A DNA stretch of 64,000 nt, from contig OY729431.1 in the NCBI GenBank assembly GCA_963422395.1, positions 896,001 through 960,000 of the forward strand, given 5' to 3'. This DNA is from Vicinamibacteria bacterium (lineage in GTDB: Bacteria; Acidobacteriota; Vicinamibacteria; Marinacidobacterales; Marinacidobacteraceae). This document shows positions 4,231 to 15,151 of this stretch, in pieces. The notes below the pieces were generated by a model, which saw nothing but the letters and a program-made list of their open reading frames with translations, made no database searches and was not told the origin of the DNA. The translations under genes and the position numbers were made by a program. How positions within the stretch are numbered: the stretch's first letter is position 1; each line of letters opens with the position of its first letter.

Positions 4231-7200
4231 ATGAATATCCGACGCCTCGTGATCCTGCTGTCCGCCGGAGTCTTCGCCGGGGTGCTGTCTGCCCCGCGGG
4301 CGCTCGCCCAGGGCAGCCATCGCGACTACGACGAACACTTCGACGAAGCGAATGTCACCGTGCCGCCCGAGTACTACGAGGGCATGGAGTTCCGGGCGGC
4401 CGGTTTCACCCGCGGCGGGCGCTCCACCGCGGCGGCCGGGGTGACCGGCGATCCGCTGACCTATTACTTCGGCGGCACCGGCGGCGGGGTGTTCAAGACC
4501 AGCGACGCGGGCCACAACTGGACGAATGTCAGCGACGGTTTCTTCGGGGTGGGCGCGGTGGGCGCCATCGCCGTCGCTCCGTCCGATGCGAATGTGGTCT
4601 ATGTAGGCACCGGGTCCGTGTGTCCGCGCGGGAACATCTCGGTGGGTGACGGCATCTACCGCTCGACGGATGCCGGCAAGAGCTGGAAACACATCGGGCT
4701 CCGGCACGCCGGACAGATCGGTGCCATCGCCGTCCATCCCGACGATCCAGAAGTCGCGTTCGCCGCCGTGCTCGGCTATATCTTCGGACCCAACGAAGAG
4801 CGCGGGATCTTCCGCACCGAAGACGGCGGGGAGAGCTGGGAACGGGTGTTCTTCCTCTCCGACCGCACCGGTTTCGTGGACATCCAGATGGATCCGACGA
4901 ATCCCCGCATCCTCTACGCCGGCGCCTGGCGCGCCGAGCGGAAGCCCTGGACGATGATCTCGGGGAGCGAAGACGGCGGCATCTACCGCAGCCGGGACGG
5001 CGGCGACAGCTGGGAAAAGGTCGAAGGCGGCCTGCCGTCGGGGCTTTTGGGAAAGACCGCGGTCGCGATTTCGCCGGCCAACCCGGACCGCATCTGGGCA
5101 CTCATCGAAGCGGAAGGCGACGACGGCGGGCTCTACCGCTCGGACGACGGCGGCGAACGCTGGACCCGGATCAACGGCGACGCGAATCTGCGCCAGCGCC
5201 CCTGGTACTACATCCACATCTATGCCGACCCGAAGGACGAGAACACCGTGTACGGCTTGAATGTGGGTTTCCACAAGTCCATCGACGGCGGCAAGACCTT
5301 CTCCGAGCGCATCCGGGTACCCCACGGCGACAACCACGACCTCTGGATCAACCCGGATGATCCGAGCAACATGATCAATGCCAACGACGGCGGCGCGAAT
5401 GTCTCCTTCGACGGGGGACAGAGCTGGACCGACCTGATGGGGCAGGAGACCTCGGAGATCTACCGGGTGTTCGTGGACGATCAGTGGCCGTACCGCATCT
5501 ATGGTTCGCAGCAGGACAACTCCACGATCTCGATCCCCTCGCGCGGCGGTTTCGGGGTAGTGCCCGACTGGTATTCGGTGGGCGGCTGTGAAAGCGGCCA
5601 CATCGCGGTGGACCCGCGCGATCCGGACATCATCTACGCCGGCTGTTACGGCGGTTCCATCTCCCGAGTGAACCGCAAGACCGGCGAATATCGGCAGATC
5701 CTCCATTACCCGCAGCTGCAGCTCGGGCAGGCGGCGCGCGACCTGAAGTACCGCTTCCAGTGGAATGCGCCCATCCGGCTCTCCCCGCACGACCCCGACA
5801 TCCTCTACCACGCTTCGCAGGTCGTCCACCTGTCCCGCGACCAGGGGCAGAGCTGGTCGGTGGTGAGTCCGGACCTGACGACGAACGACCCGGAACACCA
5901 GGATTACGCCGGCGGTCCGATCACCCGCGACAGCACCGGCGTCGAGGTGTACAACACTGTTTTCGCCTTCGAGGAATCGCCGCACACCCCGGGGGAGCTA
6001 TGGGCCGGGAGCGACGACGGCCGCGTCCATATCTCCCGCGACCGGGGCGATACCTGGACCGAGATCACTCCGGCGGACATGCCCGAAGGCGGCACCGTCA
6101 ATGTGATCGAACTCTCGGTGCACGACCCGGCGCGCGCCTTCCTCGCGGTGTACCGGTACCGTGAGAACGACTTCCGCCCTTACATCTTCCGCACCGGGGA
6201 TGCCGGGGCGAGCTGGGACCTGCTGACCGACGGCACGAACGGGATCCCGCCCACGCATCCTACCCGCGCCATTCGCGAAGACCCGGATCGGATGGGGCTG
6301 CTCTACGCCGGCACCGAGTTCGGCCTCTACATCTCCTTCGACGACGGCGCCCATTGGCAAAGGTTCCAGAACGACCTGCCGGTCACCCCGATCACCGACC
6401 TCCGGGTGCACCGGAAGGACCTGGTGGTGTCCACCCAGGGCCGTTCCTTCTGGGTGCTCGACGACCTGAGCCCGCTCCACCAGCTCGACGAGGAAACCAC
6501 GACCGCAGAGTCCGTGCTCTACGCACCGCGCACCGCGCACCGCGGCGGTTTCGGCGGTGCGGCCCGGATCCAGTATCACTTGAAGAACGAGCCGGAATCG
6601 GCCATCACCCTCGAAATCCTCGATTCCGCAGGGAATACGGTGCGAAAGCTCACCGGACAGCCGGGCGCTGGTGCTCCGAGCGGGCCGGTCTCGCCGTTCG
6701 CGGCGTTCTTCGGCGGCGGGGGACCCGAAAGGCTGCCGGCGAAGGCAGGGCTCAACTCCTTCCGCTGGAACCTGCGCGGTGAGCGGATCGAGCGACCCGC
6801 CGGAGTCGTCCACTGGGGCGGGACGCCGGGTCTCCCGGTGCTTCCCGAGACATATGAAGTGCGTCTCACCGTGGGCGAGGAAACCCATACCGCGCCACTC
6901 GAAGTGGCGATCAACCCGAGCCTCTCCTCCACCGCCGCAGATCTCGCGAAACAGCGCGAGCTCGGCGAAACCGTCGCCGGTGAGATCACGAAACTCTTCG
7001 ACGCGCTCACCCGCCTCCGCGAGGTGAAGTCCCAGGCCGAAGACATCACCGCCCGCCTGCGGAAAGCAGACCGGGAAGACGAGGAACTCGGAGAACTCTC
7101 GAAAGCGCTCGGCGACCGCCTCACCGCGATCGAGGAAACGATCACCCAGACGAACAGCAAGTCCTCCCAGGACCCGATCAACTTCCCGCCGCAGATCGAC

Positions 7201-7422
7201 AACCAGCTCGTCACTCTCTACGGATATATCGTCCAGGCCGATTACGAACCCACCGCGGGCGCTTATGAACGCTTCGACGACCTGAAACCCGAGCTCGACG
7301 CCATCCACACCGATCTCGATGCGGCCATCACCGAGCACCTCGTCCCCTTCAACGCGCGGATCGCCGCCCTCGGCGTCCCGGCGGTCGTGGTGGCGGAGGA
7401 GGAGGAAACCCCGGGCAATTGA
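4231..7422 (+). CDS. Secreted VPS10/BNR-repeat (sortilin-like) glycosyl hydrolase family protein
   Basis: Signal peptide; many SxDxGxxW Asp-box repeats; HGDNHDLWINP, NDGG and YRFQWNAPI motifs; C-terminal coiled coil. Confidence 0.85.
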   Translation: MNIRRLVILLSAGVFAGVLSAPRALAQGSHRDYDEHFDEANVTVPPEYYEGMEFRAAGFTRGGRSTAAAGVTGDPLTYYFGGTGGGVFKTSDAGHNWTNVSDGFFGVGAVGAIAVAPSDANVVYVGTGSVCPRGNISVGDGIYRSTDAGKSWKHIGLRHAGQIGAIAVHPDDPEVAFAAVLGYIFGPNEERGIFRTEDGGESWERVFFLSDRTGFVDIQMDPTNPRILYAGAWRAERKPWTMISGSEDGGIYRSRDGGDSWEKVEGGLPSGLLGKTAVAISPANPDRIWALIEAEGDDGGLYRSDDGGERWTRINGDANLRQRPWYYIHIYADPKDENTVYGLNVGFHKSIDGGKTFSERIRVPHGDNHDLWINPDDPSNMINANDGGANVSFDGGQSWTDLMGQETSEIYRVFVDDQWPYRIYGSQQDNSTISIPSRGGFGVVPDWYSVGGCESGHIAVDPRDPDIIYAGCYGGSISRVNRKTGEYRQILHYPQLQLGQAARDLKYRFQWNAPIRLSPHDPDILYHASQVVHLSRDQGQSWSVVSPDLTTNDPEHQDYAGGPITRDSTGVEVYNTVFAFEESPHTPGELWAGSDDGRVHISRDRGDTWTEITPADMPEGGTVNVIELSVHDPARAFLAVYRYRENDFRPYIFRTGDAGASWDLLTDGTNGIPPTHPTRAIREDPDRMGLLYAGTEFGLYISFDDGAHWQRFQNDLPVTPITDLRVHRKDLVVSTQGRSFWVLDDLSPLHQLDEETTTAESVLYAPRTAHRGGFGGAARIQYHLKNEPESAITLEILDSAGNTVRKLTGQPGAGAPSGPVSPFAAFFGGGGPERLPAKAGLNSFRWNLRGERIERPAGVVHWGGTPGLPVLPETYEVRLTVGEETHTAPLEVAINPSLSSTAADLAKQRELGETVAGEITKLFDALTRLREVKSQAEDITARLRKADREDEELGELSKALGDRLTAIEETITQTNSKSSQDPINFPPQIDNQLVTLYGYIVQADYEPTAGAYERFDDLKPELDAIHTDLDAAITEHLVPFNARIAALGVPAVVVAEEEETPGN

Positions 7423-7499
7423 TCGAATCGAACGACCCGTATCCGAGAGGTTCGGGTGCCTCCGGTCGGCGCCCCTCCGGGCCGTGAATCGGGGAAGAG

Positions 7500-8105
7500 A
7501 TGAAGGGTCGAAAGGTTTTCTCCTCCGTGTGGCAGCGCCTGCTGGCGGAACCGAGCCCTCGTCTCGAAGAAGCCCTCTCGGATGCAGTCGAGAAGAAGAC
7601 CGGGGTGCCGCCCGACCGGGGCCTGGTGGCGGCCTTCTTGCGCGAGCAGGCGGAGGCGGCCCCGATCGAGGAGGGGCAGGATCGGCCAGCGCCGAGCGGA
7701 CCATTGCCGGCCCCTGCGCCGTCGAGGGGCGGAGGCCCGTTTTCCTTCAGCTTCGCTGGCGAGACGCGTTCGTTTCGGTATGCGAAGGATTTGCTCGTAG
7801 CCGTCTTCCGGAAGCTGGCGGCCCGTGATCCGGGCTTCTGCGAGCGGTATGCGGGCCGTTACTACGGCACGAAGAGGCGGTACCTGGCCACTCGCAGGGA
7901 GGACCTGTTTCCGGACACTCCCGAGCGGATCGCCATCGGAGCCGTCTCGGTCGCATCCGGCTGGTGGCTCGGAACGCATATGGGAAACTCTCAAAAGGTG
8001 CTGCGGATCCGCGAAGCCTGTGAGGTCGCCGGGCTCCGCTTCGAGGAGGATCTCGTCGTCGACTTTCCCATTCGACCGAGAAGAAGACGCGGCGGCCGAT
8101 CCTGA
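7500..8105 (+). CDS. Hypothetical protein with a SeqA C-terminal-like DNA-binding domain (resembles the C-terminal half of HsdR_N-type restriction proteins)
   Basis: GTKRRYLA...WWLGTHMGNSQKVLRI resembles SeqA-C (GRTRVYFA...YWVITNTNTGRK); helical N-terminal part followed by a Pro-rich linker. Confidence 0.5.
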   Translation: MKGRKVFSSVWQRLLAEPSPRLEEALSDAVEKKTGVPPDRGLVAAFLREQAEAAPIEEGQDRPAPSGPLPAPAPSRGGGPFSFSFAGETRSFRYAKDLLVAVFRKLAARDPGFCERYAGRYYGTKRRYLATRREDLFPDTPERIAIGAVSVASGWWLGTHMGNSQKVLRIREACEVAGLRFEEDLVVDFPIRPRRRRGGRS

Positions 8106-8197
8106 GTGCGGCAGTTTTGCGTCTTCGAGTGGTCCTCGCGGCCGAGACACCGCATCCCCCGAGCAACTGATCCGACCGGACCGGCGGGGCCGAACCC

Positions 8198-9370
8198 ATG
8201 CGGATAGAGAGCATCGAACTCAAGAACTACCGGGCGTTCCGCCGTACGGCGTTTCGTGGGCTGCCAGACATGGCGGTGGTGGTGGGCGCCAACGGATCGG
8301 GCAAGTCCACGCTGTTCGATGTGTTCACCTTCCTGAAAGATGCGTTGAGCGGGAATGCCGCTACCGCAGTGGCCCGCCGGGGCGGGTTCCGCGAATTGGT
8401 CAGCCGAGGCGAATTGGGCACTGTCGAGATCCAGATCAAGTTTCGTGAGACGGGCGGCCGATTGGCCACCTACATTCTGGAGGTGGCCCAGGATGGCGGG
8501 CGCGTCGTCGTGGAGCGTGAAGTGCTTCGCTACCGCCGGGGTCAGAAGGGAAAGCCGTGGCATTTCGTGGACTTTTCGCGCGGCGAGGGCACAGCGATCA
8601 CGAATGAATCCGTCTATGGTCAGCAGGGCGCCGTCGAGAAACGGGAGCGATACGAGCTGGACGACCCGAGCATCCTCGCCATCAAGGGGCTGGGACAATT
8701 CCGTGAGTTCCGGGTGGTCTCGGAGTTTCGCAGCCTGATCGAGAACTGGTACATCTCTGATTTCCACATCGCCGACGCCCGCCCGAGCGCGGAAGCCGGC
8801 TTCGCCGAGCACCTTTCCTCTCGCGGAGACAATGTCGCCCAGGTCGCGCAGTACCTCTTCGAGAACCACCCTGATCGTTTCGCCCGGATTCTGGAAGCGA
8901 TGCGCCAACGCGTACCCGGTGTCGAGTCTGTGGAGGCGAAACCCACCGAGGACGGGCGTCTCGTCCTCCGCTTCCGGGACGGCCACTTCCGCGATCCCTT
9001 CATCGCCCGTCATGTCTCAGACGGCACGATCAAGATGTTCGCCTATCTGGTGCTGCTCCACGATCCGAAACCGCACCCGTGTCTCGCAGTGGAAGAACCG
9101 GAGAACCAGCTCTACCCCGACCTGCTGATCGAACTCGCGGAAGAGTTCCGCGACTACGCGCGGCGCGGAGGCCAGGTGTTCGTCTCCACCCATTCTCCGG
9201 TTTTCCTGAACGGGGCGAAACTGGAAGAGATCTTCTGGTTGGTCGAGGAGGGCGGATTCACGACGGTGCGGCGGGCGTCCGAGAACGAAACGCTGCGGAA
9301 TCTCATGCAGGAAGGCGACTCTCCCGGAGCGCTCTGGAAGCAGGGACTCTTCGAGGGGGCGGGTCTGTGA
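8198..9370 (+). CDS. ABC/AAA_21-type ATPase (putative defence ATPase)
   Basis: Walker A GANGSGKST, signature-like VSDGT, Walker B/D-loop AVEEPENQLYP, H-loop STHSP. Confidence 0.88.
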   Translation: MRIESIELKNYRAFRRTAFRGLPDMAVVVGANGSGKSTLFDVFTFLKDALSGNAATAVARRGGFRELVSRGELGTVEIQIKFRETGGRLATYILEVAQDGGRVVVEREVLRYRRGQKGKPWHFVDFSRGEGTAITNESVYGQQGAVEKRERYELDDPSILAIKGLGQFREFRVVSEFRSLIENWYISDFHIADARPSAEAGFAEHLSSRGDNVAQVAQYLFENHPDRFARILEAMRQRVPGVESVEAKPTEDGRLVLRFRDGHFRDPFIARHVSDGTIKMFAYLVLLHDPKPHPCLAVEEPENQLYPDLLIELAEEFRDYARRGGQVFVSTHSPVFLNGAKLEEIFWLVEEGGFTTVRRASENETLRNLMQEGDSPGALWKQGLFEGAGL

Positions 9371-9931
9371 CCGGCCGAATCGGCTTTCTGCTGGAGGAGC
9401 GCTCGATGAAGGTTCTTCTCGAGGAACTGCTGCCGCGATCGTTCCCGGATGTTCGGTTCCTCTGTCTGGCGCACGAGGGCAAGCAGCATCTGGAGAAGAG
9501 CGTGCCGCGGAAACTCCGGGGGTGGCGCGAGCCGGGCGTTTCGGTTTCTGATAATGCGAGATAACGACGGCGCCGATTGCCGTGCCCTGAAGAACGGGCT
9601 TCTCGAGCTGCGTCCCCTAGGCGCCGGACGGGATGCTCTCGTGCGGATCGCATGTCAGGAACTCGAAGCCTGGTATCTCGGGGAGCCGGACGCTTTGGCG
9701 GAGGCGTTTTCCGACGAGAAACTGCGGTCGATCGGACGACAGGCCCGTTATCGTGATCCGGACACCGTTGTGAACCCTTCCCGAGCGGTCCGCCAACTGG
9801 TTCCTGAGTTCCAGAAAGTCTCCGGTGCTCGCCGGATGGGGAAGCGGCTCACGCGGGAGAGAAACCGTTCGGCGAGCTTTCGTGCATTGCTGCGGGGAAT
9901 CGAGAGGCTGCGGGAGGAGGCTCCGGCATGA
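9367..9931 (+). pseudogene. DUF4276-family (TOPRIM-like) protein with a +1 frameshift at about 9539-9541
   Basis: GTG overlaps the ATPase stop; FLLEERSM...HEGKQHLEKSVPRKLRGWREPGV continues in another frame as RFLIMRDNDGADC...RIACQELEAWYLG...NRSASF; one extra T in GTTT. Confidence 0.8.
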
Positions 9932-10029
9932 GGCATGGCGCCAACAGGCGCATGGTGTGCAGTGCGTCGTGGTCGGTGGATATTCCAGGTGGAGAAATGG
10001 TCAAGATCGTCTGCGTGCACCTCCCAGCC

Positions 10030-11191
10030 GACAACAACGGCGGTTCCGGCAGTTCCAGGCGAAGCTCGCCAGCCTGACGTTCTTCGACCCCGCATGCGGC
10101 TGCGGCAACTTCCTCATCATCGCCTACCGGGAATTGCGGCTGCTCGAAATCGAGATCATCCGTGAGATACGGGACGCCACCGCCGCGACCGGTCAGGCGG
10201 TACTCGATGCAGCGTGGCAGTCGGTGGTGGACGTGGATCAGTTCTACGGGATCGAGCTTGGCGAGTTCCCGGCCCGCATCGCGGAGACCGCGCTGTGGAT
10301 GATGGACCACAGGAAAGCGCGCCGATCAACGGTATGGGCAGATTGATTATCGGCTCCAAGCCCATCGACGGCAGAAGCTACATATTCGACTCGGCGGAAC
10401 GTGACGCGTTTCTGGATGCGGAGCCGGAGGCCGCGCCCTGGCTCCGACCGTTCATCGGGGCACGCGAGTATTTGCAGGGAGGCGAGCGCTGGATTCTGGC
10501 GCTGCACGATGCACCGCCCGAACTTCTTGCGTGGCTACCGGGAGTGCGGGAGCGAATCGCCGCCGTCCGCGCCTACCGCGAGGCGAGCAAGAGCGCGCCG
10601 ACGCGCAAGCTTGCGACGACGCCGACGCTCTACCATGTCAACGTTATCCCGACCACACCATTTCTGGTGATTCCGAAGGTCAGTTCGGAGCGGCGCGAAT
10701 ACGTGCCGGTGGATTGGCTGGAGCCGCCGACCGTCCCCAGCGATCTAGTGTTCGTCCTTCAGGACGCTTCGCTGGTCGATTTCGCGCTGCTGACCTCGAC
10801 GATGCACATGGCATGGCTGCGCCATATCGGCGGACGGTTGGAAAGCCGCTACCGCTATTCCATCGGCCTCGTCTACAACACCTTCCCGACACCGCCCGAA
10901 GGCGCGGATATGTCGAAGCTGGCACCGCTCGCCCAAGCAGTGCTCGACGCCCGCGCCGCTCATCCGGACGCGACTCTGGCCGATCTCTACGATCCCGATC
11001 TGATGCCGCCCACCCTGCGCCGCGCCCACCAAGCCCTCGACCGCGCCGTGGACCGCCTCTACCGCCGTACTGGCTTCGCGTCAGAGCGCGAGCGGGTAGA
11101 ACATCTGTTTGGGGTGTATGATAAGGTGCAGTCGCCGCTCGGGGCGGGAATCAAGGCACGTTCAAGACGCCGAACAAAAGCAAGTGAATGA
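10030..11191 (+). pseudogene. MmeI-like (type IIL/IIG) restriction-methyltransferase remnant; N-terminus missing and large internal deletion at about 10310
   Basis: FFDPACGCGNFLIIAYRELR...QFYGIEL...AETALWMMDH is joined out of frame to the TRD/C-terminal part (GSKPIDG, PKVSSERREY, GRLESRYRYS, TLADLYDP, HQALDRAVD); the NPP(F/Y) motif region is absent. Confidence 0.88.
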
Positions 11192-11233
11192 CCAGAAAAG
11201 GGCACACCCATGACCGGACAAGATGCTTTGCAG
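11031..11233 (+). repeat. Direct repeat copy A (MmeI 3' tail plus start of the next gene, MTGQDALQ)
   Basis: Aligns with 11905-12114; shared blocks include CCGCGCCGTGGACCGC, GAACATCTGTTTG and GGACAAGATGCTTTGCAG. Confidence 0.85.
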
Positions 11234-11845
11234 AAAAAATCGGAACTGCGCCTTGTATTGACCGAGAAATTCACCGAGACCGATGCCTTGGAGATTCGAG
11301 CAGCGCTCAATCGACACCTGCGGATCAGCAAGCCAGAGAGGTATTATCGAGCCTCGATAGACCCGCCATCGGTCATCAAGATACTAGGTGAGGCCGCGCT
11401 GTGGCTGCCTCTGACCGCAGCCACGGTCTTCTTCAAGTCCTTCGTCAGTACTCTCGGGAAGCGAATGGCCGATGCGGCATGGGACAGTTTGGCAGCACGG
11501 AAGGAGAGCAAGGACATCGAACCATTGGTTGATGTCGTAAACACGCTCGTTTCGGCTGCTGATCGTGTTGGAGGACGGGTTTATATCGAGGTTGGTCTCG
11601 ACATTCCAGATGACTTCTTCGGAACGGCGATCACGACCGAGTCCCGCGATCCCTTGGAGTTGGCGCGGATCCTATCGTCTTTCATCGTGCGTGCGGAGAA
11701 AATCTCCGACGCGGTACAGGCCGAGATCGAACGCGGGTACAAACCGCTCGGGCAGTTCGTCATGGAGCTGGAGCAAGACGGAAGCATGACGATCCGATGG
11801 ACTGCTGCGTCCGACTCCAAGACCTACGAGAAGCACATACCGTAG
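11210..11845 (+). CDS. Hypothetical protein, 211 aa, visibly lower GC than the backbone
   Basis: Intact ORF with protein-like composition and one amphipathic/hydrophobic stretch (ALWLPLTAATVFFKSFVSTLG); no family recognised. Confidence 0.7.
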   Translation: MTGQDALQKKSELRLVLTEKFTETDALEIRAALNRHLRISKPERYYRASIDPPSVIKILGEAALWLPLTAATVFFKSFVSTLGKRMADAAWDSLAARKESKDIEPLVDVVNTLVSAADRVGGRVYIEVGLDIPDDFFGTAITTESRDPLELARILSSFIVRAEKISDAVQAEIERGYKPLGQFVMELEQDGSMTIRWTAASDSKTYEKHIP

Positions 11846-11904
11846 ATAACTGTCAGTGGACGTTTTAGGATGGGATCACTCTGCGACCAACCCCAGCCCT
11901 CGCT

Positions 11905-12114
11905 AGGCCCTCGGCCGCGCCGTGGACCGCATCTGCCGGCATGGCGGCTTTGCGTCGGAGCGCGAACGGGTGGAACATCTGTTTGAGTTGTATGAGAAAA
12001 TGATGTCGCCGTTGACGATGGGAGTGGGAATGAAGGAAAAACGCCGGAGACGCCGGACAAAAAGCAAACGAATGGCAGAAGAACACACTCATGATGGGAC
12101 AAGATGCTTTGCAG
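11905..12114 (+). repeat. Direct repeat copy B (diverged MmeI 3' tail plus MMGQDALQ gene start)
   Basis: Encodes RAVDRICRHGGFASERERVEHLFELYEKMMSPL, a second MmeI C-terminus, then ATGATGGGACAAGATGCTTTGCAG. Confidence 0.85.
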
Positions 12115-12200
12115 GAAACGGTTGCCGCCCTTATCAATAGAAAAGCCGAAGGGACCTATTGGGATTTCAAACGTATCCATCACCGCAATAAAGGTGACAT
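12091..12200 (+). pseudogene. Schlafen/AlbA_2-domain protein, N-terminal fragment truncated by the integrase remnant
   Basis: LINRKAEGTYWDFKRIHH matches the AlbA_2 E-x4-(D/E)FK opening motif; similarity stops where the integrase sequence begins. Confidence 0.6.
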
Positions 12201-13085
12201 GACCGCTTGGCTTGCGGCGGTGTGCCGAAGATCGTGCAGACGCAGGCTGCCGAGCTTCGCGTCGTTGCATACCTTTCGCCAGCACGTCGTAAGGCTATAG
12301 GTGCCTCGGCCTTCGGCATAGTACGGAAACAGGAACGCATCGGGATCGCGCGCACCGGGCAGCGCGGCGACATGCGCCCGCGCGGCCTCCCCGAGCGGCA
12401 CGGCGCGCGGTCCGGTCTTCGAATCCTCAAGATTCAGCGCGTCGGTACCGACGTTCCGCCAGCGAAGATTGAGCACTTCGCTGCGGCGGCACCCGGTGAG
12501 TGCGAGCAGCCGGATCGCCGCGACGGCCTCGGGCCATTCGGCCTCGCGGGTGTCGAGAGCGCGCCCGAGCCGCGCGAGTTCGTCCGCGTCCAGGAACCGG
12601 GCGAGCTTCTTTCTCGGGTTCTTCGCGATGCCGAGACAGGGCTGCTGCCGCGCTCGCGCAATCCCCATTCTTCGGCCCGGAACATCATCGCGCGCAGTAT
12701 CTCGAAGGCGCGGTTGGCCGCGCCGGGCTTGTCCTTGCTCGCCGCGTCGAACCACGCGGCCACGTCCTCCGGGCCGATGCGGTTGAGGGGCATTTTGCCG
12801 AAGGCGGGGAGGATGCGGGCCTTCAGATAGATGCGCACGGTCCTGCGCCCCGAGGGCTTCCAGTGCGGCTCGCAGCGGCCAGGTACTCGTCCGCGAACTC
12901 CCGGAAGGTCGGGGTCTTCTTCTCGCGCTGGATGTCGTCTGCGGGATTGTCGCCCGCGCGGATGCGCGCGAGCATGTCGCGGGCGCGGCGGCGGGCCTCG
13001 GCAAGCTCCATCTCGCCGTGCCGGGCGATGACGATGCGGCGGCTCCGCCCCTCGATACGGGTCTGCACGATCCAGACATTCCGTG
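12195..13085 (-). pseudogene. Tyrosine recombinase/phage integrase with arm-binding domain; two frameshifts, truncated at both ends
   Basis: WIVQTRIEGRSRRIVIARHGEMELAEARRRAR (arm binding), then shifts near 12880 and 12645 to LLALTGCRRSEVLNLRW, DSKTG and LRLHDLRHTAAS; the LGH...Y catalytic tail is missing. Confidence 0.88.
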
Positions 13086-13711
13086 GAGGGAGCTTTGGTT
13101 GATGCTGGCAAGGCTCCATCGGGCGTTTCGGTCAGCACCGCGTTGTCGGTTGTCGACGGACCTCGCGGCCTCATTCGCCAGCGGCGCAGTGCACCCCCGC
13201 GCGCTTTTCGAAAGGGATGCGTCAGGAGCCGCTCGGCGGCCACCTCACGGATGCGGGCGCGATCGTGCACGGCCACCCACCCGCGGGCGTCGTCTTCGAG
13301 CAAGACGCTGTATGGAAGAATCAGCGCCTCGGAAATAGTCCAACAATTACGCTGGGTTACGGTCTAGGCTCTCTCCTTTCGGCGAGTTCGAGAAATACGA
13401 GGAGAACGGAGTGTTCCGAAGCCTCGAGGAGCCGGCATGGAAGGACTGAGCGGATGTCTCAGAACCGGGTGGGTTTCGAAGGCGTCGGCGACCGTTCTGC
13501 CGACTGACAGGAAGTGCCGCTGCTCGAGTTTGCCGGAAGCGGTGCCGTTGTAGCTCGCCTTTCGTTTCCTCGAATCCGGGGCGGGCGGCGTCCACCGAGA
13601 TACGGCGGCATCCCGCCCGGGCCGGGTCGGAACGGCTCGAGAACGCTCGTTGCGGCCGTTTCCGCAGTCGACAGGGAGCATGGGGGCGGCCCACGGGACC
13701 GCTTTGAACGG

Positions 13712-15151
13712 TCAGCTCTGCGCCATCTCCGCCCGCGCATCGAGTTCCACCCGGTGACGGCTCTGCGGAGGCAGGACGGCGGTCTCGTTCCCCGCATCTG
13801 GGGGAGACATCGCGCCGAGTCGATCGTAGAGGACTTCGGTCGCGGCCTCCCGGTCTTCCGGAGTGCGCGCGCGCACCCGAATCCGCCCCGCATCCGCCAG
13901 CGCGGCGCCCAGCGAACCGAGCGCGCCTTCCAACCGGTCCAGGGCGCAATGGGTCTCGGCGCGGGCGTCGCCGCCGCCGAGGAGCCGGCCCCGGTGGAAC
14001 GGAGAGGCGCCGGCGATTCGGATCCGGCGGCCGATGCGAACCGCCTCCCGGAATCCCGCTTCCGCCGGGAGTTCGTATCCGCGCCCGGTCTCCCGCGAGA
14101 TCCAGGGCGCCGGCAGTTCGGTGAAGTGGTGGCTGAGATCGCCGGAAGCGGTGAGATAGGGGGGGCGCCGGTATTCGTCGCCGGAGTCTCCCGGGATCGG
14201 GTCGAGCTCCGCCTGTGCCTCGGCCAGTTCCTCCCGCGACCGCTCGTCGAGCGAGAAGGCGCCGAGCCGCAGGTTGTCTTCGAGGTGGCCGGGCGCTCCG
14301 GGGCGGGCGCCCACGATCACTCCGGCGACGCCAGGCTGTTCCAGTACTTGGCGGCAGGCGGCATTCGCAATAGAGACGCCGAGCCGATCCGCCACCCGGC
14401 GGATCGAGCGGAGCAGGCGCTGGAAGCGGTCCCAGCCCCCCGCCTGTTCGATGAAGCGCAGATACTTCATCTCCGACCAGGTGCGGGATTCGTCCATCGG
14501 GGGCGCTGCCCGTCCGAGCCAGCGGTCGCTCAACAGCCCGCCGGCGAGGGTCCCGTAGGCGAGGAGCCCGACTCCGTGCGTTCGGCAGACGCGGGTTAGC
14601 CCCCCTGCCGGACGCCGGTCGAGGAGTGAATAGCAGACCTGGTTCGAGACCAGCGGAATCCCGCTTCGGAGTGCGAGATCCCAGTGGGCGGCGTCGAAGT
14701 TCGTGACTCCGAGGTGCAGGATCCGCCCGGCGGCGCGCTGCTCCCGGAGTTCGAAGAGACAGTCCAGCCAGTGCGGGTCGGAATAGCTCCAGGCGTGGAA
14801 TTGGAGGAGGTCCAGCCGCCCCCCGCCGATCCGGTCGAGCGACCGCGTCACCGCGGCCTCCACCTCCTCGGGCGACGAGACCCCGGGCGGGGGCACCCAC
14901 TTGGTGAGTACCCGGACTGCAGCGCGCGGTTCCGGGCGCTGCCGGCGGAGGGCTCCCGCGACCCGTTCCGCCGAGCCGTAGTGATCCGCGACATCGAAGC
15001 CGCACAGGCCGGCGTCCACGAGCGGCGTGAGCGCCCGGGCGGCTGCTTCCGGATCGAGCAGCGCCCCTCCCCGCTCCTGGTCGGCGACCTGCCACAGCCC
15101 GGTGAGCACCCGCGGCAGTTCGAGCCCGGGAGCGAGCCGCGTCCGTCCCAC
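13712..15151 (-). CDS. Aldo/keto reductase fused to a C-terminal RidA/YjgF-like domain
   Basis: FDVADHYGSAE, TKW, LDLLQFHAW, LGVTNFD, SNQVCYSLLDRR and YGTLAGG motifs; C-terminal AVRIGRRIRIAG...VELDARAE. Confidence 0.85.
   Translation of the reverse strand: MGRTRLAPGLELPRVLTGLWQVADQERGGALLDPEAAARALTPLVDAGLCGFDVADHYGSAERVAGALRRQRPEPRAAVRVLTKWVPPPGVSSPEEVEAAVTRSLDRIGGGRLDLLQFHAWSYSDPHWLDCLFELREQRAAGRILHLGVTNFDAAHWDLALRSGIPLVSNQVCYSLLDRRPAGGLTRVCRTHGVGLLAYGTLAGGLLSDRWLGRAAPPMDESRTWSEMKYLRFIEQAGGWDRFQRLLRSIRRVADRLGVSIANAACRQVLEQPGVAGVIVGARPGAPGHLEDNLRLGAFSLDERSREELAEAQAELDPIPGDSGDEYRRPPYLTASGDLSHHFTELPAPWISRETGRGYELPAEAGFREAVRIGRRIRIAGASPFHRGRLLGGGDARAETHCALDRLEGALGSLGAALADAGRIRVRARTPEDREAATEVLYDRLGAMSPPDAGNETAVLPPQSRHRVELDARAEMAQS

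Follow-up and report, generated by a model that had tools for sequence, protein, structure and literature searches.

The window analysed here, a 64,000-nucleotide (nt) stretch of DNA from a Vicinamibacteria bacterium (assembly GCA_963422395.1, contig OY729431.1, positions 896,001 to 960,000), contains a locus in which the 3' end of a gene from the MmeI family of Type IIL restriction-modification (RM) enzymes is present twice. One of these tails precedes an open reading frame (ORF) for a 211 amino acid (aa) protein, referred to as p211, and the other precedes the remaining 5' stub of a PDC-S50/SLFN_AlbA_2 defence gene. Our analyses indicate that the locus is probably the fossil of a "C-terminal displacement" at the MmeI-family gene, in which an incoming module of an MmeI tail and p211 would have been inserted at the conserved end of a resident MmeI gene and the resident tail, with the PDC-S50 gene behind it, would have been moved downstream. 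An original prediction for this DNA had regarded the MmeI tail and an 8-codon leader shared by the two downstream genes as a possible swappable slot for defence cassettes. In the window only p211 is still intact, and nothing at the locus works now as a cassette system. The features of the locus are summarized in Table 1.

Table 1. Features identified in and around the MmeI locus, in order of their position in the window
Feature	Position	Strand	Evidence and characteristics
AAA_21 ATPase, HEC-01-type candidate defence pair	8198..9370	+	Pfam AAA_21 5.6e-34; PADLOC HEC-01B 1.1e-175, profile 1-392 of 395
DUF4276 partner of the ATPase	9449..9931	+	Pfam DUF4276 4.5e-10, profile 90-192 of 192; PADLOC HEC-01A 7.4e-37, profile 58-186 of 190
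MmeI-family (Type IIL RM) pseudogene	10047..11191	+	Pfam domains and alignment to locus L013
Repeat copy A	11022..11237	+	MmeI tail, ending with the stop at 11191; spacer of 18 nt, 11192-11209; captured PDC-S50 start from 11210
p211, intact 211-aa ORF	11210..11845	+	PDC-S50 codons 1-10 translationally fused in front of p211 codon 2; own ATG lost
Conserved non-coding junction segment, p211 stop to tail B	11846..11895	+	Identical in L017; first ~17 nt also in L014
Repeat copy B	11896..12118	+	Displaced MmeI tail remnant, then spacer, then native PDC-S50 start
PDC-S50/SLFN_AlbA_2 defence gene, 5' stub of about 36 codons	12091..12196	+	Similarity to the 381-aa ORF of G061 C2
Tyrosine recombinase remnant	12180..13303	-	Split over two frames; end of the catalytic domain lost
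Deletion junction, PDC-S50 stub to recombinase	12196..12198		About 2.4 kb of L026 missing

Two MmeI Tails from Different Alleles

The predicted presence of a segment of about 200 bp in two direct copies is borne out by our analyses. A repeat search recovered two blocks, viz. 11022-11137 with 11896-12011 (79% identical) and 11198-11237 with 12079-12118 (85% identical), the copies (A and B) being spaced 874-881 nt apart and differing from each other by insertions and deletions (indels) in the stretch between the blocks. When copy A was compared with the whole genome, which is a single contig of 2,908,270 bp resembling a metagenome-assembled genome (MAG), copy B was the sole significant match (E 5.7e-35, 75% identity) and the next-best match had an E value of 0.046; the repeat thus has only two copies in the genome, which are 75-85% identical. 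Copy A consists of the last 53 codons of the MmeI-type ORF (Pfam MmeI_C 9.1e-27), an 18-nt spacer and the start of the 211-aa ORF. The tail in copy B matches MmeI_C at 1e-4 (profile positions 47-82), contains an in-frame TAG at 11904-11906, and has lost its stop to an additional A.

In the core of the tail, A and B agree at 87/107 positions, a value inside the range of 77-95/107 seen among the alleles of other loci, and the claim that the copies represent different MmeI alleles is upheld. The nearest alleles of tail A are those of loci L014 (92/107) and L026 (90/107), and that of tail B is the tail located after p211 in locus L013 (92/107). The original prediction had also drawn attention to an identical run ahead of the breakpoint. 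An exact run of 18 nt (GGACAAGATGCTTTGCAG) is the longest that the two copies share; however, it is not an outlier, given another exact run of 16 nt in the repeat tail, and as the peptide that it encodes is also conserved family-wide, it was dropped as a candidate functional site. The GC content at 11000-12400 of the window falls to 54-59%, compared with 63-73% in the flanks, which fits a foreign origin of p211 and the PDC-S50 stub.

The Shared Leader Is the Native Start of PDC-S50

The claim that copy B continues into an AlbA_2/Schlafen-like protein holds for the identity of the gene, which is established through a 381-aa homologue, but not for its extent, as only a 36-codon stub is present. 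Over 37 aa, the stub has 73% identity with the beginning of an ORF of 381 aa on contig C2 of G061, one of four genomes searched, and the 36-39 residues of the stub match residues 1-39 of this homologue at 69-73%. The 381-aa ORF is recognized by both Pfam (SLFN_AlbA_2, 6.6e-9) and PADLOC (PDC-S50, 2e-78, profile 5-306 aligned from residue 7). A full-length AlbA_2 protein has a complete domain and about 380 aa, and 12091-12196 falls short of both; the stub by itself has no Pfam family match, and a protein search for longer relatives, which is weak with a query of only 42 aa, gave no match. In G061 C2 the 381-aa PDC-S50 gene is situated 18 nt behind an MmeI gene with a copy-A-like tail, and hence the arrangement of MmeI tail, leader and PDC-S50 is found uninterrupted in another MAG (locus L026, where 7963-8246 aligns to window 11905-12197).

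Homologues of PDC-S50 have a characteristic start. Among the best 120 of 411 homologues at E <= 1e-20, the sequence EGxxWD[FL]K at residue 20 is present in 106, a start of the form M[TIM]xQ[DENGS]xL in 53, and the narrower form MT[GEK]QDxL in 32. Because homologues share that start, MxGQDALQ represents the conserved native N-terminus of PDC-S50/AlbA_2 and not a neutral leader, and the interpretation of it as a fixed expression or recombination adaptor is not tenable. A search for the PDC-S50 protein in 401 genomes of the class recovered only the window stub and one 34%-identical gene, and the pairing of MmeI with PDC-S50 is therefore uncommon in the class.

In-frame Fusion of p211 to the PDC-S50 Start

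The proteins encoded behind the two tails are unrelated beyond the leader (p211 against PDC-S50, BLASTP E 1.3), as had been predicted. We found 51 homologues of p211 and aligned 30 sequences, of which 19 begin directly at MSEL-type residues and are about 203 aa long. Seven of the 30 carry an MT[EG]QD[AT]L[QL] extension, these being the window protein and its closest relatives (78-90% identity), and the other 4 have different upstream extensions. The family is characterized by a length of about 203 aa, the start MSELxLxLSEKF and the motifs DPPS...GLDIPDD...SRDP, and apart from its captured N-terminal extension the window protein conforms to it, residues 11-211 aligning at 43-90% identity to 29 homologues.

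The position of the joint can be read from the DNA of the unfused genes. The native start of p211 is ATG-TCG-GAA-CTG in locus L016, which together with L015 was used to place the joint; the fused gene in L013 reads ...CTG-GAA-ACG|TCG-GAA-CTG, and native PDC-S50 reads ...CAG-GAA-AC[A/G]|GTT-GCC. On account of these starts, the joint lies exactly between codon 10 of PDC-S50 and codon 2 of p211, in frame and with the ATG of p211 replaced. This joint is common to the window, L013 and L014, codons 9-10 having since changed in the window and L014. The limit of similarity had been predicted after 8 codons; comparison of L013, L014 and L026 places the original fusion point after codon 10 (30 nt).

Shared Junctions and Mosaic Tails in Related Loci

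Scanning of one genome per species led to the finding of 11 p211 loci, and gene contexts were compared for the window and these 11. In L013 (contig C1 of G061, a record titled Thalassobaculaceae), Mrr and an intact MmeI of 935 aa come first, followed by a stub of PDC-S50 (ITEQDVLQATISNFIDRKSEG...), an ORF of 256 aa and an IS110 transposase; next are the 3' portion of a tail, the leader fused to p211, the 50-nt junction segment, a further tail and recombinase remnants. In L014 (Binatia), an intact MmeI is followed by a 242-aa ORF, an MmeI_C piece, the leader fused to a frameshifted p211, and host genes. The intact MmeI of L017 (Gammaproteobacteria) is followed by an ORF of 296 aa and by what appears to be a degraded trace of the tail fragment of L026; a minus-strand ORF comes next, and then a p211 truncated at its 5' end, the 50-nt segment as in L013, and a tail. 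Locus L015 (Vicinamibacterales) has an orphan tail followed directly by a native p211 with its own ribosome-binding site. Behind the PDC-S50 gene of L026 are an MmeI_C fragment that is old and degenerate (9395-9510), a minus-strand ORF and a recombinase whose catalytic domain is complete.

From the p211 stop, across the 50 nt after it and 30 nt into the tail, the window and L017 have the same sequence, from which L013 departs at one base; unlike this near-identical 3' junction, the first 100 codons of p211 show a dS of 0.27 between the window and L013. Since the p211 fusion joint and the junction of p211 with tail B are the same in several genomes, they represent one event and not repeated capture of cassettes. 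Beyond the shared junction the tails of the window, L013 and L017 diverge at different points and into different downstream DNA, the L013 tail resembling window tail B for about 40 nt and thereafter L017 and L014. Such a mosaic structure is indicative of homologous recombination between MmeI alleles.

Orphan 3' fragments on the same strand, all starting inside MmeI_C, are found downstream in the window, L013 and L017, and in degenerate form in L026 and, before p211, in L014. In the window tail A leads to p211 and tail B to PDC-S50, and the mosaic tails of L013 and L017 lead to other flanks. The part of the original prediction in which the MmeI tail acts as a recombination adaptor thus survives in that the MmeI 3' end recurs as a breakpoint with stacked tails (L013, L017, L026), but the leader is not generic. 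The gene just 3' of full-length MmeI differs in 4/4 related loci, and none of the genes immediately following the three intact MmeI genes begins with the leader, their starts being MTKW..., VNLG... and MRLA....

Genome G061 holds two Mrr-MmeI islands (L013 on C1 and L026 on C2) which are 92% identical over 4.2 kb; one has an intact PDC-S50 and a frameshifted MmeI end, and the other an intact MmeI, a PDC-S50 stub, IS110 and p211. The minus-strand ORF (about 190-260 aa, no Pfam match) is conserved between L026 (9448-10227) and L017 (6423-7001); it adjoins the old degenerate MmeI_C fragment in both loci, and in L017 its start abuts the truncated p211.

Degradation of the Locus in the Window

Five domains are expected in an MmeI-family enzyme (viz. 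N-terminal nuclease, helical spacer, methyltransferase, target-recognition domain (TRD), and C-terminal domain), and all five are present in the intact relatives of L013, L014 and L017 (919-963 aa). The frame at 10047-11191 lacks the nuclease and the spacer in Pfam and retains MmeI_Mtase 7-89 of 259, MmeI_TRD 9-205 of 207 and MmeI_C 7-80 of 83; because only these parts remain, it is a pseudogene. Relative to L013 and L026 it carries a 613-bp deletion with a frameshift at 10311, inside the methyltransferase domain, window 10047-10311 corresponding to L013 2486-2750 and window 10311-11156 to L013 3363-4220. In contigs of public sequencing runs, loose ends at 10311 run on into undeleted MmeI sequence. 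No further MmeI_C match was found in the genome of the window.

A tyrosine recombinase remnant had been noted to abut the repeat directly, and it does adjoin the stub. The contact is, however, a deletion scar and the recombinase is truncated: Phage_integrase positions 2-139 of 172 are found in one frame and Phage_int_SAM_3 and Phage_int_M in another, and the homologue in L026 covers Phage_integrase 2-170 of 172. Because window 12196-13084 aligns to L026 10620-11509 (92%), the window has lost about 2.4 kb, by which the stub became joined to the recombinase. In contigs of run X1 the sequence leftward of 12196/12198 is that of an intact recombinase.

Two public runs contain short-read contigs that agree with 11795-12225 and 11921-12225 without a single difference; the window letters at 11217 and 11234, in the joint of copy A, are not among the matches listed for these two runs. 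Contigs of four public runs include the L014-type joint (10954->11185, with the same 34 intervening letters) as well as L026-type arrangements, and p211 is uncovered in the contigs of run X2. No convincing excision joint was found in the public-run contigs when alternative junctions were sought; the joints 11139->12030 and 11147->12030 were considered as excision of p211 and rejected, their shorter side being 23 letters and both fitting ordinary single-tail MmeI alleles. Within the same runs, the contig depth summed over the MmeI body and over the recombinase exceeds that of p211 by a factor of tens, and these parts are on this account multi-copy across community members.

Origin of the Locus and Alternative Explanations

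The ancestral order was MmeI, an 18-nt spacer and the PDC-S50/AlbA_2 gene, as is evident from L026, the two genes being probably co-transcribed. A second module of an MmeI tail and p211 would have recombined into this locus, with the conserved MmeI_C coding block (ALDRAVDRLY...GFASERERVEHLF) as anchor and a presumably illegitimate joint at the opposite end, and the resident tail and PDC-S50 would have been pushed downstream as an orphan. The intermediate may have been circular (Campbell-type) or linear (homology-facilitated illegitimate recombination). During or just before the joining, p211 evidently exchanged its ATG for codons 1-10 of PDC-S50, to which it was joined in frame, and thereby took over the ribosome-binding region and start codon of PDC-S50. 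The composite evidently formed once and then spread horizontally, in an island also carrying a tyrosine recombinase, to at least four lineages (viz. the window acidobacterium and the MAGs titled Thalassobaculaceae, Binatia and Gammaproteobacteria). Later recombination of the tails with other MmeI alleles would account for the mosaic tails and the differing downstream flanks. In the window, subsequent decay has evidently removed the 5' half of MmeI and the 613 bp, cut PDC-S50 to 36 codons and truncated the recombinase.

Several observations weigh against this reading. The order and number of the events are deduced from sequence comparisons, the comparison loci are all MAG assemblies, and no intermediate, either a circle or a donor with only a tail and the leader fused to p211, was seen among them. 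The displaced tip consists of the last ~53 MmeI_C codons and a short K/R-rich end, with no separate polymorphic domain and partner; the orphan tail thus lacks the functionally variable domain of Rhs and CdiA tips, and no selection for its displacement is evident. Tandem tails are also rare outside this island lineage. MmeI_C is found in 70/401 genomes of the class, and a pair of matches less than 5 kb apart (two frameshifted single genes being left aside) occurs in the window's genome alone; in the order of G061 it is found in 6/63 genomes and paired in none. This survey is insensitive to short orphans, since tail B scores 21.6 bits and the L013 tail after p211 was missed.

Other explanations for the locus must be weighed against displacement. 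An unlikely one holds that two complete MmeI systems (MmeI-1 with p211 and MmeI-2 with PDC-S50) once stood in tandem in the island, that an internal deletion reaching from the 3' flank of p211 to the tail of MmeI-2 left tail B, and that the leader was acquired by a separate tail-anchored conversion. The end product would be the same, native p211 is located directly behind an MmeI tail in L015, deletions are abundant at the locus, and the 50 nt before tail B align weakly to MmeI_C coding sequence. This course, however, requires the same number of events or more, the capture of the leader still calls for an illegitimate joint, and neither the class survey nor the 11 p211 loci showed two full MmeI genes in tandem. 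Insertion of an integrative element aimed at the MmeI 3' end by the adjacent tyrosine recombinase, with A and B as attL and attR and a replacement tail brought in, is improbable. The insert is flanked by direct repeats with the recombinase less than 100 nt away, and a homologous recombinase lies downstream in L013 and L026, but the window recombinase is outside the A-B interval, and its contact with the stub was made by the 2.4-kb deletion. The 874-bp insert encodes p211 only, the repeats, which differ by indels and have an identity of 75-85%, share no exact core at their ends, and the ORFs of >=130 aa scanned around p211 in L014 (18 ORFs) and L017 (12 ORFs) included no recombinase.

The dedicated, reusable slot of the original prediction, integron- or shufflon-like and with the MmeI tail and 8-codon leader as fixed adaptor for many cargo genes, is more improbable still, and has largely been refuted by tabulation of the downstream genes. 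The gene behind MmeI is indeed a different one at each of the four related loci, the stacked tail fragments share one orientation, and p211 depends on a captured start codon. The leader, however, precedes only two cargo types and is native to one of them: its 6 copies in five genomes (G000 and G061-G064) comprise 3 before p211 and 3 before PDC-S50 or its stubs, and 0/3 matches to the leader DNA pattern in Joint Genome Institute (JGI) metagenomes were related, these being without an MmeI tail and without AlbA. The leader is absent from the starts of the remaining downstream genes (256, 242 and 296 aa). The junctions are common to genomes and not independently repeated, and neither att sites, a shared core site, inverted repeats nor an attC-like hairpin was found; the best fold after p211 (11840-11935) has a z score of +1.61, 193/200 shuffles folding as well, and no inverted repeat is present there. 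For a shufflon or invertible RM locus no matching inverted arm was found in 8000-15000, the copies being direct. An IntI-type integrase would lie next to attI and divergent from its cassettes; the recombinase here is convergent and truncated, and it reaches 24.3 bits with the NF040815 model (XerA/integron integrase), which has a cut-off of 220, and 22 bits with XerC/D models. Least probable of all is that the copies diverged after a local tandem duplication, or that they are an artefact of metagenome assembly. The direct repeats are 874 bp apart and the genome is a MAG-like single contig; against this, each copy is nearer to alleles of other loci (A to L014 and L026, B to L013) than to its partner, the same junctions occur in three other assemblies, and zero-difference contigs span 11795-12225 in an independent run.

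Comparison with Known Systems

Displacement as proposed for the MmeI locus has parallels in polymorphic toxin loci. In Rhs arrays, according to Jackson et al. (2009; PMC2935791), the conserved gene body or 3' region is the homology anchor, acquired alternatives displace the resident 3' end, which is kept downstream as a same-orientation orphan, modules cross taxonomic boundaries, and circular intermediates with homologous recombination were proposed. The MmeI locus is similar in its anchor in a conserved 3' region, its same-orientation orphan and its crossing of taxonomic boundaries. It differs in that the anchor is an RM gene, the displaced 53 MmeI_C codons form no functional variable domain, the neighbouring gene changes and the enzyme activity does not, and the arrays are short (1-3 tails) and confined to one island lineage. 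For the effector-immunity modules of the Vibrio cholerae type VI secretion system (T6SS), Kirchberger et al. (2017; PMC5361080) describe sequential displacement by homology-facilitated illegitimate recombination, with an upstream one-sided homology anchor, a downstream illegitimate joint and the older gene retained and shifted; such arrays then move between strains by ordinary homologous recombination, and the authors note a resemblance to integrons without involvement of an integrase. The MmeI locus shares the one-sided anchor, the illegitimate joint and the downstream shift of the older gene, but it has no evident effector/immunity logic, and the incoming p211 has acquired codons 1-10 of the displaced gene by an in-frame fusion.

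The locus resembles integron arrays in having promoterless genes in one orientation, an adjoining tyrosine recombinase and the newest gene nearest the expression signal. It differs from them in the absence of an attC-like element, attI and an IntI-type integrase, in a recombinase that is convergent, outside the repeats and truncated, and in its two cargo types. In hsdS shufflons and phase-variable Type I RM loci, inverted repeats mediate swaps of target-recognition domains that change specificity. The MmeI locus is similar in that partial copies of an RM gene adjoin a tyrosine recombinase and serve as recombination substrates, but its repeats are direct and outside the TRD, and the enzyme is unchanged.

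No description of displacement at MmeI genes was found in the literature, as judged by titles and abstracts. If the displacement reading holds, anchored displacement also reshuffles the genes behind an RM gene, beyond polymorphic toxin loci (viz. Rhs, CdiA, and T6SS), and its products cross phylum boundaries within a community. The p211 gene provides a clean natural example of a gene whose own start codon was lost and which was rescued by in-frame fusion to the first 10 codons of a neighbour. For annotation, a shared "leader" and an adjacent recombinase can mimic a cassette system and yet be scars. It is conceivable, although we consider it unlikely, that MmeI 3' ends are a general portable homology anchor for cross-phylum exchange and stacking of small defence or accessory genes, with start capture from the displaced neighbour serving to express promoterless genes, and that p211 would then be an RM-associated accessory or counter-defence factor with a new fold. 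The direct biological weight of the locus is small, as the window copy is non-functional debris except for p211.

Further Characteristics of p211 and Neighbouring Genes

The dN/dS values of p211 (0.35-0.61) indicate a real but weakly constrained gene. It belongs to no Pfam, NCBIfam or PADLOC family, and none of 312 pattern stretches from JGI metagenome contigs was related to it. Its AlphaFold (AF2) model is confident, with a predicted local distance difference test (pLDDT) score of 85.5 and a predicted template modelling (pTM) score of 0.81, and a Foldseek search of it against the PDB gave nothing at E <= 0.001. Alignments by VIA-align to the ToxR periplasmic domain (Z 6.4, root-mean-square deviation 2.8, 75 aligned) and to tautomerase/MIF-like chains (Z about 5) are below the stated noise range of the tool; p211 thus has no clear structural relative, and no function was assigned to it. 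In 8/12 loci (the window and the 11 others) p211 or a fragment of it is near defence genes, viz. MmeI or its tail in 5, Type I RM in L018, DruA in L020 and TIR in L021, which suggests that the p211 family is generally associated with defence loci. The L018 fragment (6953-7453) is directly upstream of a Type I hsdM gene and the L020 fragment (7001-7366) is beside the DruA gene; in L021 (5505-7396) p211 is split by an insertion sequence and adjoins the TIR gene.

Promoter, terminator and Rfam scans of the locus gave nothing, the junction segment behind p211 having no Rfam match and no stable fold (z +1.61), and no transfer RNA gene is present in window 1-25000. Upstream, the HEC-01-type candidate pair (8198-9931) occupies the expected place of the N-terminal half of MmeI. 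About 57 N-terminal profile positions are unmatched in the DUF4276 ORF, and the frame at 9079-9564 reads like its missing start; this partner may be frameshifted, and a search with 9364-9561 for such a frameshift gave no match. The left edge of the island is marked by a 201-aa ORF at 7500-8105, which has no Pfam or NCBIfam match. In the family to which the window belongs, MmeI_C is frequent (20/27 genomes), and many of the matches are in short open frames (119-199 aa), which suggests that MmeI pseudogenes are widespread in this lineage.

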